Below, in pieces: positions 23,477 through 30,025 of a stretch of DNA of 64,000 nucleotides. The number at the start of each line of letters is the position of its first letter. Position 1 is the stretch's first letter. Origin of the DNA: an uncultured Candidatus Actinomarina sp. (GTDB lineage Bacteria; Actinomycetota; Acidimicrobiia; Actinomarinales; Actinomarinaceae); the NCBI GenBank assembly GCA_902593795.1, contig CACJJR010000001.1, positions 131,230 to 195,229 of the forward strand, read 5' to 3'. The notes under the pieces are model-generated. The model made no database searches. It was not told the DNA's origin and saw nothing but the letters and a program-made list of their open reading frames with translations. Position numbers and translations under genes: made by a program.

Positions 23477-24076
23477 TTAGTAAGAGTCGTCTTCTTCGTT
23501 TTCGGTGTTTTTAAGAGCATCCATCAAAGTAGGTTCTTCAATGTTTCTTGGAACGTCTGGCCTTGGTAGGTCTGACTCTGATGGCTGTTTTTCTGAGGCA
23601 GCTTCTGTTCTAACTTTTTTTATAGTCTTTATCATTGACATCAATACTGTTTCTTTTTGGTCTTGTTTTGTGTCTTGTTTTGCTTTTTTAGGTTTTGCTG
23701 GAGCATCAAGGTGTGTTTCCTCAAGTACTACAACTTCAATACCTCCAACTAAGTCAGATACAAGATTGTAGAAAAAAGCACCAACAGTAGCGATAGCTGT
23801 TTGTGTAAGCATATAAACAGCTGCAAGAGATACCAGTCCAGTAAAGAGTGGTTCAATATTTCCAACTAATGACGCGTCTTGGTCAAGCAAGGCAAGCCTT
23901 CTCGCAATGTCTTCTAGCCCTTGAGGTACTCCAGCGTTAACTAGTAATACCCACATAATAGAAAAACCTAAGACAACGGTTAGTGCAACAACAAAGTTTA
24001 AAACCAACGTGACTTTTAGAACTGTCCATGGATCAATTTTTCTAATTATTCTTCTTACTCTGTTAACTCGGACCAT
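23477..24076 (-). CDS. DUF3566-like transmembrane protein (conserved partner downstream of actinobacterial gyrA)
   Basis: 199 aa. It has VRRIIRKIDPWTVLKVTLVLNFVV followed by TM segments and a charged tail. It occupies the syntenic position right after gyrA. Confidence 0.6.
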   Translation of the reverse strand: MVRVNRVRRIIRKIDPWTVLKVTLVLNFVVALTVVLGFSIMWVLLVNAGVPQGLEDIARRLALLDQDASLVGNIEPLFTGLVSLAAVYMLTQTAIATVGAFFYNLVSDLVGGIEVVVLEETHLDAPAKPKKAKQDTKQDQKETVLMSMIKTIKKVRTEAASEKQPSESDLPRPDVPRNIEEPTLMDALKNTENEEDDSY

Positions 24077-24079
24077 AAC

Positions 24080-26623
24080 CTAGCTTTTTATGGGTATAAA
24101 TGCTGAAACTTCCTCTTCTGAGGCTAGTTTCATAACCCTAACTCCTTGTGCTGCTCTACTCATTTGTTTTATCTGCTTTACAGCACATCTTATTGCTGTT
24201 CCGCCTGTACTCATAAGCATAACCTCAGTATCTTCATCTACTGATCTGGCTCCTACTAAATTTCCTTTCGCCTCTGTAACTTTTAAGGCCTTTACACCCA
24301 TGCCGCCCCTGCCAGCTCTTCTAAATTCATCTAGCTTTGTTCTTTTTCCATACCCCTTAGCTGTTATAAAAAGCAGTGTTTCGTCTCTAGATGTAGCGGC
24401 TCCTACTACCTTGTCACCTTCTCTTAATTTAATACCTCTTACCCCCATTGCTGTCCTGCCTTGTGGTTTTAAATTTGTTTCATCAAAGCGTATTGCTTGA
24501 CCTTTTTGAGAAACAAGTATGACGTCTTCTTTTCCTGACGTAGTTTTAACAGAAACTACTCTGTCGTCATCTTTTAGTTTTATAGCCTGAAGAGACTTGT
24601 AATTTGAATCAAAGTCTTTAAACTTTGATTTTTTCACAGTTCCCTTTTCTGTCATTATTAATAAAAATTTCTCAGTTTCATAATCTCTGGTATCAATGAT
24701 TGCCTGTACTTTTTCATCTTGACCCATAGATAACACGTTTTGAATTAAGGAACCTCTAGCAGTTCTGTTAGTTTTTGGAATTTCATGTGCTTTCGCCCTG
24801 TAGACCTTCCCTTTGTCTGTAAAAAATAATAAATATGAGTGAACAGATGTTGAAAGGAGGTGTTCTATAACATCTTCGTCAGATGAGGCAGCCTTTACAC
24901 CCTTGCCTCCTCGACCTTGTTTTTTATAAGATGTAGATGGTACAGATTTAACATATCCGTTTGAAGAAACTGAAACAATTATTTCTTCGTCTTCAATCAA
25001 ATCTTCAATAGATACCTCTCCAACGTCGGGAACGATTCTTGATCTTCTTTCATCTCCAAATTTTTCAGTAATTGCTTCTAGTTCTTCAATTAAAATTGTA
25101 TTTTGCTTTGTTCGGCTTTTAAGAATTGCTGCTAGCTCTTTTATAGTGTTTTTGAGTTCTTTTTTTTCTTCTTCTAGTTTTTCCATTTCTAAAGCGGTAA
25201 GTCTTCTTAAGGGCATGTCTAATATGTGTGATGCCTGAACTTCAGATAGTTTAAATTTAGTCATAAGAGATTTTCTTGCGGTATCTACGTCTTTTGAAGC
25301 TTTGATAACTTTGATTATCTGATCAATTTTATTTAAAGCAAGCAGTAAACCCTCTACAATATGTAATCTGTTTTCAGCTTTTTCCAACCTGTATTTGGTA
25401 CGTCTTTGAATTACATCTATTTGGTGGCTTATGTAATAGTTGATTAACTCGGGAACAGATAAAACTTTTGGAACGCCGTCAACCAGCGCTACTGAGTTGA
25501 CTGAAAAAGTGTCTTGTAGTTGAGTTTGTTTAAATAGTTGATTTAATACCACTTGAGGAACTGCATCTCTTTTTAATTCAACAACTAGTCTTGTACCGTT
25601 TCTGTCACTACTCTCGTTTCTAAGGTCAGATATTCCTTGAAGTTTCTTGTCTTGAACAAGTGTTGCAATTTTTTCCATTATTCTATCCGTTGAAGCTTGG
25701 TATGGAAGCTCTTTCACCACAATTGCTGATCTTCCTCTTCCAAGCTCCTCAACATCAGCAACAGCTCTTATTTTTATTGAACCTCTTCCTTTTAATATTG
25801 CTTCTTTAATAGTTGGGGTTTCAACAACAAGTCCACCTGTTGGGAAATCTGGTCCTTTAATAATTTTTAAATAATCCTTTGGTTTTACGTCCTTGTTAGC
25901 AATTGTAAACTTTACAGCTTCTGTGATTTCACGTAAGTTGTACGGAGGCATGTTTGTAGCCATAGCAACCGCTATTCCCTCTGCTCCATTAACTAAAAGG
26001 TTGGGGAACCTAGCGGGCAAAACTTTTGGTTCTGATGTCTCGCCAGAATAATTTGGTTCAAAATTAACTGTGTCTTCATCAATTCCGTCTAAAAGCTGTG
26101 ATGAAAGGGAGGACATTCTTGACTCTGTGTACCTCATGGCTGCAGGAGGGTCGTCCGGCGTGCCAAAGTTTCCTTGTGGTTCAATCAGTGGATATCGAGT
26201 ACTAAAGTGTTGACCTAACCTAACAAGGGTTCCATAAATGGCATCATTTCCATGTGGGTGATAGTTACCCATAACATCACCTACAACCTTTGAACATTTC
26301 CTAAAAGGACCTGTTGGTCTAATGCCTGTTTCATACATGGAGTATAAAATTCTTCTTTGAACTGGTTTCAGCCCATCTTTAACGTCCGGAAGTGCCCTAG
26401 AAACAATGACAGACATTGCGTAATCTAGAAAAGATTTTGATATTTCGTCTTCTACAGCAATAGTTCCGTTGTTTGTATTTTCTAGCTCTTTTGTAGCCAC
26501 TGCAGATGGTTTCTTTTTTGGAGCTGGTTTTTTAGCTGCTGGTTTCTTTTTTGGAGCTGGTTTTTTAACTGGGGGTTTTTTAGCTGCTGGTTTCTTTTTT
26601 GGAGCTGGTTTTTTTGGAGCCAT
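24080..26623 (-). CDS. gyrA: DNA gyrase subunit A, with a ~42-aa Lys/Pro/Ala-rich N-terminal extension
   Basis: 847 aa. It has [35 protein letters not shown] (catalytic Tyr), and a C-terminal beta-pinwheel. The ATG overlaps the gyrB stop (TAATG). Confidence 0.95.
26495..26620 (-). repeat. imperfect tandem nucleotide repeats encoding the PAKK-type tail of GyrA
   Basis: On the plus strand, gctgctggtttcttttttggagctggtttttta-type units recur. The peptide is [38 protein letters not shown]. Confidence 0.85.
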
Positions 26624-28545
26624 TATACGTCCAAAAATCTTACGTCTTTAGCGTTCTTTTCTATAAAAAGTTTTCTTTTAGATACATCGTTGCCCATTAA
26701 GACTTCAAACATATCAGAAGCCTTGGCCATTGCTCCTTTGGCGTCTGCAAGTGTTACTTTAATAAGGGTCCTTGTTTCTGGATTCATCGCTGTGTCCCAC
26801 AGCTCACCAGCATTCATTTCACCAAGACCTTTGAACCTGCTGATATCAAATTTTTTATTTTTGTTTTCTTTTTTAAACTTGTTAAGTGCTTCGTCGTCCT
26901 TTAAATAGGTTATTCCAGAAGAAGCTTTAAGCCTGTAAAGTGGTGGTTCTGAGATCCAAACCTTTCCGCTAGTAATTAGGCCTGGCATAAATTTAAAGAA
27001 AAACGTTAAGAGCAGGGTTCTTATGTGTGCACCATCTACATCAGCATCTGTAAGAAAAATAATTTTGTCATATCTTGACTCTTCTCCGTTGTACTGTGTT
27101 TTAATTCCCGTTCCAATTGCTTTTATTAAAGCGCTAATTTCTTCATTTTGAAGTGCTCTGTTTTCTGTAACTTTCTGAACATTTATTATTTTGCCCCTTA
27201 TTGGCAAAATTGCTTGAACTCTTGAATCTCTTGCTTGTTTCGCTGGGCCTGCTGCTGAGTCTCCTTCAACAATAAACAGTTCGCTTTCTGTTGGATCAGT
27301 AGAGGAACAGTCTGCTAGTTTCCCGGGCAGTCCTGATGTTTCAAGAATACTCTTTCTTTTCGTAAGCTCTCTTGCTTTTTTTGCGCTCATTCTTGCTTTT
27401 GCCGCAACAGCGCACCTTTCAACAATAGCTCTTCCCTCTTTCGTGTTCTTTGTTAGCCATTTTGGAAATTCATCATTTATTAATACTTGAACTCTTGATT
27501 TCATTTCTGTGTTCCCAAGCTTTGTCTTTGTTTGTCCTTCAAACTGTGGTTCTTTGACCCTCACAGAAACAACTCCTGTCATTCCTTCTCTTATGTCATC
27601 TCCAGTAAGTGAAATGTCTGAGTGTAGGTTTCTTTTTTTTGCAAAGTCGTTAATAGCTTTTGTCACCGCTGTTCGAAGGCCCTCTTCGTGGGTGCCTCCT
27701 TCTAGTGTGTGGATGTTGTTTGCAAAGCTTTTTACCGTTACATCATCTTCGTTTTTCCACTGTAAAGCTACTTCAATTTCTGAGTCTTTAGTTTGGTCTG
27801 CAAAAGAAATTATTTTTTCATGAAGTGGTTCAAACCCTTCGTTCAAATATTCAACAAAATCGATAAGGCCTCCTTTGAAGTGAAACTCTTCCTTTGTTGC
27901 TGGCTTGACCCTGTTGTCAACGAGAGTAATTTTTAGACCTTTGTTCAAAAAAGCGGTTTGACGGAGCCTTTCAGAAACAATGTTGTATTCATATGTCTGG
28001 GTTTCGTCAAAAATTTCTGGATCTGCAAGAAAGTTAACTTTGGTTCCTGTTTTTTTAGATACCTTGCCTCTTTTGATTTTTGTTTTAGGTTTTCCTAAAT
28101 CAAAGTCTTGATTCCAAACGTGGCCATCTCTTTGAACCTCTACTTTAACAAACTTGGAAAGAGCGTTAACTACCGAAATACCAACCCCGTGGAGTCCTCC
28201 ACTAACTGTATAGGCTCCTGACTCGAACTTCCCACCTGCGTGAAGAGTTGTTAAGACCGTAGTGAGGGCAGAAATTTTAGTTTTTGGATGTGGTTTAACC
28301 GGAATACCGCTTCCATCATCTTCAACCGTTACTGATCCGTTTTTCTCCAAAGCAACAGTAATTTTTGAACACCTGCCAGCCATTGCTTCATCAACTGAGT
28401 TGTCTAAAACTTCCCAAATAAGGTGGTGTAGTCCGTTTGGTCCTGTTGAACCAATATACATAGCTGGTCTTTTTCTAACTGCTTCAAGACCCTCAAGAAT
28501 TTTTATATCTTTTGAATCATAACTATTTGAATCTTTTTTAGACAC
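26623..28545 (-). CDS. gyrB: DNA gyrase subunit B
   Basis: 640 aa. It has the GHKL ATPase blocks (LEGLEAVRKRPAMYIG, LHAGGKF) and Toprim EGDSAAG and DADVDGAHI. Confidence 0.95.
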   Translation of the reverse strand: MSKKDSNSYDSKDIKILEGLEAVRKRPAMYIGSTGPNGLHHLIWEVLDNSVDEAMAGRCSKITVALEKNGSVTVEDDGSGIPVKPHPKTKISALTTVLTTLHAGGKFESGAYTVSGGLHGVGISVVNALSKFVKVEVQRDGHVWNQDFDLGKPKTKIKRGKVSKKTGTKVNFLADPEIFDETQTYEYNIVSERLRQTAFLNKGLKITLVDNRVKPATKEEFHFKGGLIDFVEYLNEGFEPLHEKIISFADQTKDSEIEVALQWKNEDDVTVKSFANNIHTLEGGTHEEGLRTAVTKAINDFAKKRNLHSDISLTGDDIREGMTGVVSVRVKEPQFEGQTKTKLGNTEMKSRVQVLINDEFPKWLTKNTKEGRAIVERCAVAAKARMSAKKARELTKRKSILETSGLPGKLADCSSTDPTESELFIVEGDSAAGPAKQARDSRVQAILPIRGKIINVQKVTENRALQNEEISALIKAIGTGIKTQYNGEESRYDKIIFLTDADVDGAHIRTLLLTFFFKFMPGLITSGKVWISEPPLYRLKASSGITYLKDDEALNKFKKENKNKKFDISRFKGLGEMNAGELWDTAMNPETRTLIKVTLADAKGAMAKASDMFEVLMGNDVSKRKLFIEKNAKDVRFLDV

Positions 28546-28619
28546 GAATTATCTCCAAGATACGCTTCTATTTATTTGTTACAGCCCCTGCTGAAATCTT
28601 ATTTTACTAGATTTACAGA

Positions 28620-28907
28620 TTATTGCTTAATATTGGATATTTGAACATCAACGTTTTTAAGCTTAATTTTCGTATTTTTTTCAATATTTATAATTAAATT
28701 TTGTGAATCAAGCTCTAAGATTTTTTTAACTCTTGAATTATCAACATAAACAATAAGCGTGTCGTTTAAAACTGGTCCTGTTACAACATCTCCTACCCAC
28801 TTATAGTGGCTTTTAGTTATATAGTCTTCAATTTTTTTAGAGTTGTTGAAGTTTATACCCAGTGTGTTGGTGTTTGGATTTATTCTTTCGGGGTCTTTTT
28901 TAAACAC
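28620..28907 (-). CDS. dciA: DUF721/DciA-like protein
   Basis: 95 aa. HYKWVGDVVTGPVLNDTLIVYVDNSRVKKILE fits the DUF721 pattern. It holds the syntenic slot immediately upstream of gyrB (the Rv0004 position in mycobacteria). Confidence 0.55.
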   Translation of the reverse strand: MFKKDPERINPNTNTLGINFNNSKKIEDYITKSHYKWVGDVVTGPVLNDTLIVYVDNSRVKKILELDSQNLIINIEKNTKIKLKNVDVQISNIKQ

Positions 28908-30025
28908 TATTCATTAGTTCTAACAGGCATTAATAAGTATTGGTATGTTTCCTCTTCACCTTGAATTACCGCTGGTTTGTCGTTTCCTGAAAATCTCAAA
29001 AACGCTTTTCCGCCGTCTAAAACTTCAATGCCTTGAATTAAGTAATTGGGGTTAAATGAAATCTTAAAGTCTGATACGTCCCCGACCTCTAGTCCGAGAA
29101 TATTAATATCAATCTCCTCAACACCCCCACCAATATCTTTGTTTGTTGATGAGATGTTTAATGTGTTCTCGTTAACAACCTTTAAAGTTACTGGAATAAA
29201 GCCCTCAGCAACAACAGTGGATCTGTCTAATGATTCCAAAATATCTTTTTTGTCTACCTCTATAGAAAAAACGTTTTCTTTTGGAAAAAGTGCTTGGTAT
29301 TCTGGATAACTTCCTTCGAGTTTCCTTACTGATGTATAGTATTTGTCGTTATAAAAATGAAGCTCTCTGTCTGTTGAGTTTATGAAAATTCTTTCTTCAC
29401 TGTCTTCAAAAAGTTTTATTGTTTCGTTTAAGGATCTGTATGAAACTATTCCAGCATCGTTTATTGGAAGGTTTGAAATCGTGTTTGTTGCGAGTCTGTA
29501 GCTATCTGTTGAAACAAGTGTCGTTTTTTCTTCTTCGTTGTCAAAATATACCCCCGTAAGTATTGGTTTTCCTCCTTCTGGAGAAGCTGCTATCCCAACT
29601 TTTCTTAAGGCTTGGAAAAGCTCTGATGGTGCTAGTTCTTGGCTTTCTTCTTCTTTATAAGACTTTTCAAGTAATGCTTTTGGGTATGTTAGGTGGTCTA
29701 GTTTTCTTAGTTTATATTCAGACTTTTCAGTTTCGATCATGACTTCGTTTCCTAGGTCTGAAAAAACAACCTCTCCTGGTGCCATTTTCCTTACCACCTC
29801 GGACAAAACCCTTGAACTTATTAAACACTCTCCGTCTACCATTGAATCTACCTGAAGCTTGGCCTTTATTACCAGATCTAAGTCTGAACCAATTACCTCA
29901 CAAAAGCCTTCTTCAACTTTAATGTAGATGCCTTGAAGAGAAGGTGTTGAGGGTTTAACATCCACAGCTCTTGAAACAGACAGTATGACTTCTTTTAGCT
30001 CTTTTGTTTTTGACTTAAACTTCAA
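28907..30025 (-). CDS. dnaN: DNA polymerase III beta sliding clamp
   Basis: 372 aa. It has three-domain clamp length, the C-terminal LLMPVR motif, and a position directly after dnaA. Confidence 0.9.
   Translation of the reverse strand: MKFKSKTKELKEVILSVSRAVDVKPSTPSLQGIYIKVEEGFCEVIGSDLDLVIKAKLQVDSMVDGECLISSRVLSEVVRKMAPGEVVFSDLGNEVMIETEKSEYKLRKLDHLTYPKALLEKSYKEEESQELAPSELFQALRKVGIAASPEGGKPILTGVYFDNEEEKTTLVSTDSYRLATNTISNLPINDAGIVSYRSLNETIKLFEDSEERIFINSTDRELHFYNDKYYTSVRKLEGSYPEYQALFPKENVFSIEVDKKDILESLDRSTVVAEGFIPVTLKVVNENTLNISSTNKDIGGGVEEIDINILGLEVGDVSDFKISFNPNYLIQGIEVLDGGKAFLRFSGNDKPAVIQGEEETYQYLLMPVRTNE

Follow-up and report, generated by a model that had tools for sequence, protein, structure and literature searches.

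In Streptomyces coelicolor, the C-terminal lysine repeats of TopA, which follow the pattern K1-2(A/T/N)3-5, stabilize the enzyme–DNA complex and lend the enzyme processivity; DNA-binding proteins as a group are enriched in such repeats (Strzalka et al. 2017, PMC5714199). The C-terminal PAKK tail of HupB is likewise indispensable for HupB function (PMC5676037), and the HupB and HupS tails are required for DNA binding and compaction (PMC5676037, PMC2932737, PMC5974015). Here we describe a tail of this kind at the N terminus of GyrA, the A subunit of gyrase, encoded in a 64,000-nucleotide stretch (the window) of an uncultured Candidatus Actinomarina sp. (contig CACJJR010000001.1, positions 131,230 to 195,229). 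Actinomarina belongs to the marine actinobacteria and is highly streamlined (PMC7771536); the genome comprises 1.07 Mb in 11 contigs with approximately 35% GC, in agreement with an initial annotation of the window that had assumed relatives among low-GC actinobacteria. The TopA type of lysine repeat consists of one or two lysines alternating with three to five small neutral residues, a pattern that the GyrA tails follow; TopA and HU-type proteins carry it at the C terminus, whereas here it lies at the N terminus of GyrA. The GyrA tail is the same kind of module as the TopA repeats, on another carrier and at the other end.

The gyrA gene occupies positions 24080–26623 of the window on the minus strand and encodes 847 amino acids (open reading frame (ORF) list and sequence). 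The initial annotation had placed the tail correctly, at 26495–26623, although it left the strand unstated, and its description of a Lys/Pro/Ala tail in the gyrA frame, fused to the GyrA N terminus, is borne out by the sequence and by 53 orthologues. Residues 1–43 include 17 lysines, 12 prolines and 10 alanines, and no acidic residue. Within residues 2–39, seven KK or KKK clusters are separated by three-residue spacers of P, A or V, giving a net charge of +17. At the DNA level, the tail repeats in tandem with a period of 33 nt (2.2 copies, 92% match), is built of 15-nt and 18-nt units and has a GC content of 41%, compared with 35% in the window. Beyond the tail, the protein is a standard gyrase subunit: PF00521 matched residues 76–516 (E=1e-155), identifying a type IIA subunit A; the catalytic-tyrosine motif AAMRYTES is present and aligns with Mycobacterium tuberculosis GyrA structures; and six PF03989 repeats (E=4e-67) together with the GyrA box QGRGGKG indicate a six-bladed pinwheel and distinguish the protein from ParC.

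The junction of the gyrB stop and the gyrA start reads GTATAATGG (context GAC GTA TAATG GCT). As the initial annotation had observed, the gyrA ATG overlaps the gyrB stop codon, which makes translational coupling of gyrB and gyrA probable, and no second ATG precedes the conserved DYAMSVIV block; the sole in-frame alternative start is a GTG at V42. One alternative explanation is that the tail is untranslated, that GyrA starts at this GTG or further downstream, and that the upstream frame is a coincidence of the DNA repeat. The presence of the GTG in this genome favours such a reading, as does the chance of finding an open 43-codon frame, which is not negligible (approximately 0.04 at the local base composition). 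The initial annotation had also cited the absence of stops as evidence of translation; the frame is indeed open, but at this probability its openness is weak evidence alone, and the case for the tail therefore rests on comparison with relatives.

We collected gyrB–gyrA junctions from 57 further Actinomarinaceae species and analysed the 53 with a complete 5′ end. The tail was present in all 53 orthologues, the incomplete ones end at contig edges within or adjoining the repeat, and the sister genus (G080) likewise has AKKTP repeats. This alignment of orthologues, which the initial annotation had proposed as a check, showed the tail to be conserved and variable in length in Actinomarinaceae, with N-terminal extensions of 28–66 residues. 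Stops or frameshifts in relatives, named there as grounds for abandoning the claim, did not appear: the frame is open in 53 of 53 species despite many indels in the tails, all of them whole-codon, whereas stops interrupt each of the two alternative frames in most of the 53 species (45 and 47). A start codon was found at the same site in every one of these species, as GTG (TAGTG) in one of them (L088), and the distance from the gyrB stop to the gyrA start is 0–3 nt in all complete orthologues (TAATG, TAACATG, TAAAATG, TGATG or TAGTG). Most species have no further ATG, GTG or TTG ahead of the conserved block, and a start codon equivalent to the V42 GTG occurs only in this genome and its closest relative (G013), so that the alternative start offered by the initial annotation is not a conserved one.

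The composition of the tails points in the same direction. In the repeat part of the 53 tails, lysine accounts for 41% of residues, alanine for 27%, proline for 20% and threonine for 6%, and aspartate and glutamate together for 0.5%. Each tail has 4–10 KK(K) clusters, and 266 of the 280 spacers between them (95%) are exactly three residues long (A/P/T/S/V). The lysine codons vary synonymously (645 AAA and 119 AAG). Conservation at the amino acid level with a KK period of five would not be expected of an untranslated repeat, and the only conserved start codon would then be purposeless; we consider an untranslated tail extremely unlikely. Because 53 orthologous tails could be compared, the tail is more than a chance open frame, and we infer that the tail, encoded by the first 120 nt of gyrA, is almost certainly translated. 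As judged from these sequences, the pattern is that of a translated peptide selected for periodic positive charge, with a repeat number that moves by whole 15-nt units.

Another possible explanation places the main function in the mRNA, where an A-rich, weakly structured repeat would open the junction and aid reinitiation, with the peptide as a by-product. In line with this, the stop and start codons overlap and the junction has no clear Shine–Dalgarno sequence (only GGA at −11 to −9), other Acidimicrobiia have a spacer with GGAG at this position, and AAA dominates among the lysine codons. However, an mRNA role needs neither 4–10 repeats nor an exact pentapeptide period, and it leaves the exclusion of acidic codons (GAA) and the GC-rich proline and alanine codons unexplained. 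Moreover, in a genus of Ilumatobacteraceae with GC-rich DNA, a normal spacer containing an AAGGA motif precedes gyrA, and GyrA has a lysine-rich tail there too. On balance, we regard a role confined mainly to the mRNA as very unlikely. We also rejected a GyrB–GyrA fusion through a −1 frameshift, in which the tail would link the two subunits: the gyrA frame closes 2–18 codons before its ATG, and no slippery heptamer is conserved at the junction (some species have TTTTTG, others TTCTTG). Phased A-tracts that bend the DNA were rejected by reasoning, as a 15-nt period is out of helical phase.

Length variation among the tails follows the repeat unit. Linker sequences are clade-specific, and within clades that have a common linker the lengths are spaced by five amino acids or a multiple of that number (such as 38/43/48/63 and 28/38/48/53). 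We also compared marine metagenome variants with 75–99% identity in the conserved part of GyrA. In these variants the KK positions are nearly invariant and the spacers exchange P, A, T and S. Lengths of 48 and 51 are the most frequent, and the largest variant group steps through 46/51/56/61. The repeat number would drift by one pentapeptide (15 nt) at a time, through replication slippage or unequal recombination, under selection that preserves the reading frame and the spacing of the KK clusters.

The repeat also affects how gyrA appears in assemblies. Seven of approximately 60 assemblies break in or adjoining it (G002, G048, G066, G073, G076, G078 and G080; loci L021, L098, L031–L034 and L093), and three of these (G066, G073 and G076) seem tail-less, with contigs that stop beside the repeat. 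Evidently, the 15-nt tandem repeat hampers short-read assembly and can make gyrA look tail-less; there is also a risk that the gyrA start is trimmed in error during gene calling or curation. A profile search of protein representatives with residues 1–75 gave 11 matches, mostly short fragments, HMMER down-weighting low-complexity sequence; the 3 of these 11 that we inspected were all Actinomarina-like GyrA N termini.

In gyrase, the N-terminal arm of GyrA packs against the TOPRIM domain of GyrB at the DNA gate. All GyrA and ParC chains in the Protein Data Bank (PDB) aligned with the Actinomarina protein only from residues 51–58 or later, I55 being the first aligned residue, so that approximately 45 residues are extra. 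The start of the alignment corresponds to residue 17 of M. tuberculosis GyrA and residue 11 of Escherichia coli GyrA, and in crystallized GyrB–GyrA fusion constructs GyrB is joined directly before this point. A flexible polycation of 40 residues, attached through a linker of 15, might extend as far as the G segment or an incoming T segment.

These observations suggest how the tail may work. Translation would probably start by termination–reinitiation at the gyrB stop codon (TAATG) and yield a polycation of approximately 40 residues, which is very probably disordered because it is rich in proline, and which would contribute +17 per GyrA and +34 per A2B2 complex. The 15-residue linker would join this tail to the GyrA N-terminal arm by the DNA gate. 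There, the tail would bind the DNA backbone non-specifically as a flexible tether and raise the affinity of gyrase for DNA or its residence time, much as the TopA repeats stabilize the enzyme–DNA complex and give processivity in Streptomyces. By this analogy, we infer that the tail is a fairly probable electrostatic tether, non-specific for sequence, that increases the affinity of gyrase for DNA or its dwell time. As only one GyrA-type match was found in the genome and gyrase appears to be its sole GyrA/ParC-type enzyme, with a bearing on decatenation, the tail may, as a speculation, also aid capture of the second duplex for that reaction.

Several points weigh against a tether that enhances gyrase. 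Most gyrases work without a tail, and the usual GyrA N terminus is acidic. The spacers are rich in non-synonymous change (174 non-synonymous and 116 synonymous codon differences in pairs of the same length), and only charge and periodicity appear to be constrained in the tail. A polycation near the DNA gate could equally modulate or hinder strand passage. Lysine repeats were put forward as a typical trait of GC-rich genomes (PMC5714199), and the genome described here has approximately 35% GC. An AlphaFold2 model of residues 1–560 built with 20 close homologues was poor throughout (mean pLDDT 49, pTM 0.35).

A further explanation is a translated tail whose main role is something other than tethering DNA, such as a regulator acting on acidic surfaces of GyrB or of the GyrA C-terminal domain, a binder of RNA or polyphosphate, or a near-neutral, low-complexity expansion that is tolerated because it is harmless. 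The fast evolution of the spacers and the instability of the repeat number speak for this explanation, as does the lack of a tail in nearly all other gyrases, from which it follows that the core reaction does not need one. By contrast, the KK period of five, the near absence of acidic residues and retention in 53 of 53 species of a highly streamlined lineage speak against neutrality. Furthermore, the carrier is a DNA enzyme with the tail near its DNA gate by homology, and the same kind of repeat binds DNA in the best-studied cases (PMC5714199, PMC5676037). We consider a main role other than DNA tethering rather unlikely.

The tether that we favour has both likenesses to and differences from described systems. 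The TopA repeats and the GyrA tail each combine one or two lysines with small neutral residues in a variable copy number, on a topoisomerase, in the same phylum. However, the TopA repeats are C-terminal, belong to a type IA enzyme and have been linked to GC-rich genomes, whereas the GyrA tail is N-terminal and belongs to a type IIA enzyme in a 35% GC genome; it also has a stricter five-residue period and more proline, and Actinomarina TopA itself has no repeats. The PAKK/KAAK tails of mycobacterial HupB/MDP1 and Streptomyces HupS are disordered, consist of Lys, Ala and Pro and sit on a folded DNA-binding core, as the GyrA tail is expected to do, but those proteins are abundant nucleoid-associated proteins with C-terminal tails, whereas in Actinomarina an enzyme bears the tail and the HU of the same genome is tail-less. 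The C-terminal domain of linker histone H1, SPKK-type motifs and chlamydial Hc2 (PF07382) are similar to the GyrA tail in their K/A/P make-up and presumed electrostatic DNA binding; this resemblance is compositional only, with no sign of common descent. A hmmscan of GyrA against Pfam gave no PF07382 (HC2) match at E<=0.01, and because the profile match was not significant for this GyrA we rejected descent from chlamydial Hc2. Precomputed HC2 matches are recorded on many Actinomarina GyrA homologues, and these fit low-complexity similarity.

Within gyrase, a comparison can be made with the short, disordered, acidic C-terminal tail of E. coli GyrA, which reportedly tunes the interaction with DNA (work attributed to Tretter and Berger in 2012). 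Both are charged, disordered appendages of GyrA, but they differ in charge and terminus. The presumed effect of the E. coli tail, auto-inhibition of wrapping, is opposite to that proposed for the Actinomarina tail, and the GyrA described here has no acidic tail at its C terminus. The initial annotation had found a tail on GyrA unfamiliar, and in the literature that we searched there was likewise no description of a lysine-repeat tail on GyrA; the Actinomarina paper (PMC7771536) is silent on gyrase, lysine and histone-like features. Although the kind of module is known, its carrier GyrA, its N-terminal site and its setting in an AT-rich minimal genome are undescribed in that literature.

To place the tail within the class, we surveyed GyrA alignments from 401 genomes of 177 genera. 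Outside the family, these alignments began at query residue 16 or later, mostly at approximately 45–55; where we inspected the earlier starts, they were read-through of upstream sequence. GyrA N termini elsewhere in the class are short and acidic (MTDE…, MSDD…). The Ilumatobacteraceae-like genus mentioned above has, in four of four species, a GyrA that starts MASKKP(A/T)KK and continues as a looser Lys/Ala/Pro tail (MASKKPAKKVAKPATKSAAK; L035, G031:C1:1054800-1055950, and L049–L051), in genomes of 1.7–2.2 Mb. An ordinary spacer with the AAGGA Shine–Dalgarno-like motif lies upstream of its gyrA, and its TopA also has lysine repeats. Because six sister genera have acidic GyrA N termini, the sequences point to independent gain of the tail in this genus. 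A by-product scan of 78 GyrA N termini across bacteria found 18–47 residues with essentially no lysine, with one exception from a metagenome-assembled genome of Candidatus Falkowbacteria, an ultra-small bacterium of the CPR (L183, JAPLVX010000061.1), in which approximately 89 residues precede the conserved block and the first 60 or so include 17 lysines (MSKPDNKVNKKTKEDKNKKLSKASTKKAP).

Lysine-rich tails were otherwise missing from this genome. A six-frame translation scan of the whole 1.07 Mb revealed no further K/P/A repeat stretch. Actinomarina TopA (approximately 898 amino acids; G000:C1:304465-305730 (−) and flanks, L065) has no C-terminal lysine repeats, although these are described as characteristic of TopA in actinobacteria, and has an acidic end, …FSEEE; TopA also lacks them in two other Actinomarina species; AKKA-type tails are found on TopA in the Ilumatobacteraceae-like family (f7) and in G027, but not in families f2, f10 and f25. 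The single HU of the genome is a 92-residue frame without a tail; in most class members sampled HU frames are 90–107 residues, and a few longer frames exist. Lsr2 (PF11774) was found in none of 41 class genomes sampled from 16 genera. The initial annotation had suggested that the tail could substitute for nucleoid proteins lost in streamlining. With Lsr2 absent from these genomes and HU mostly of 90–107 residues in the class members sampled, we found no Actinomarina-specific loss of a tailed nucleoid protein, which leaves this proposal unsupported. Separately, a sister Actinomarina (G054:C8:6300-8400, L036) encodes an ORF of at least 386 amino acids with an internal (PAVKK)4 stretch, which had no counterpart in the six-frame scan of the present genome.

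Bacteria cannot do without gyrase, which is also a drug target; its known accessory elements are the GyrA box, the acidic C-terminal tail and the insert of E. coli GyrB. With the Actinomarina tail, gyrase joins TopA, HU, Ku and sigma factors as a carrier of the lysine-repeat module, and AT-rich genomes join the GC-rich ones. That this genome, among the most streamlined of free-living organisms, retains a single tail of the kind suggests that the tail is useful, and the tailed gyrase would offer a natural test of how non-specific DNA tethering affects supercoiling, decatenation and salt tolerance. A bolder idea, which we regard as a long shot, is that the 15-nt repeat is a tunable locus: slippage would alter the number of KK clusters, the affinity of gyrase for DNA and the set-point of supercoiling, gyrase would double as a nucleoid-associated protein, and such tails would be recurrent in ultra-small cells (Actinomarina, small-genome Ilumatobacteraceae and the CPR). 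This idea draws on the steps of 46/51/56/61 among near-identical marine variants and on the range of 28–66 across species. If it were true, global gene expression could be adjusted heritably and reversibly in lineages that have almost no transcription factors.

The coordinates of gyrA, its tail and gyrB are collected in Table 1.

Table 1. Positions in the window of gyrB and of the parts of gyrA.
Feature	Position	Strand	Description	Basis
gyrB	26623–28545	−	640 aa; TAA stop at 26623–26625, one base in common with the gyrA start	ORF list, sequence
gyrA start codon	26621–26623	−	ATG within TAATG	Sequence, comparison of orthologues
Lysine-repeat tail	26507–26620	−	GyrA residues 2–39	Sequence, family-wide statistics, population variants
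Non-repetitive linker	26462–26506	−	GyrA residues 40–54, between the repeats and I55	PDB alignments
In-frame GTG	26498–26500	−	V42; not conserved	Comparison of orthologues
Canonical GyrA body	24080–26461	−	Breakage-reunion domain, C-terminal beta-pinwheel, GyrA box, stop codon	Pfam, sequence, PDB alignments

In the window, dnaA is followed by dnaN, a 95-aa ORF, gyrB and gyrA (ORF list), and gyrA thus lies directly downstream of gyrB in an origin-region cluster. The 95-aa ORF (28546–28907, minus strand) stands between dnaN (28907–30025) and gyrB, with no recF at its usual position. Directly 3′ of gyrA, a 199-aa ORF (23477–24076, minus strand) has the look of a membrane protein; its C-terminal half is charged (PAKPKKAKQDTKQDQKE) and its end acidic.

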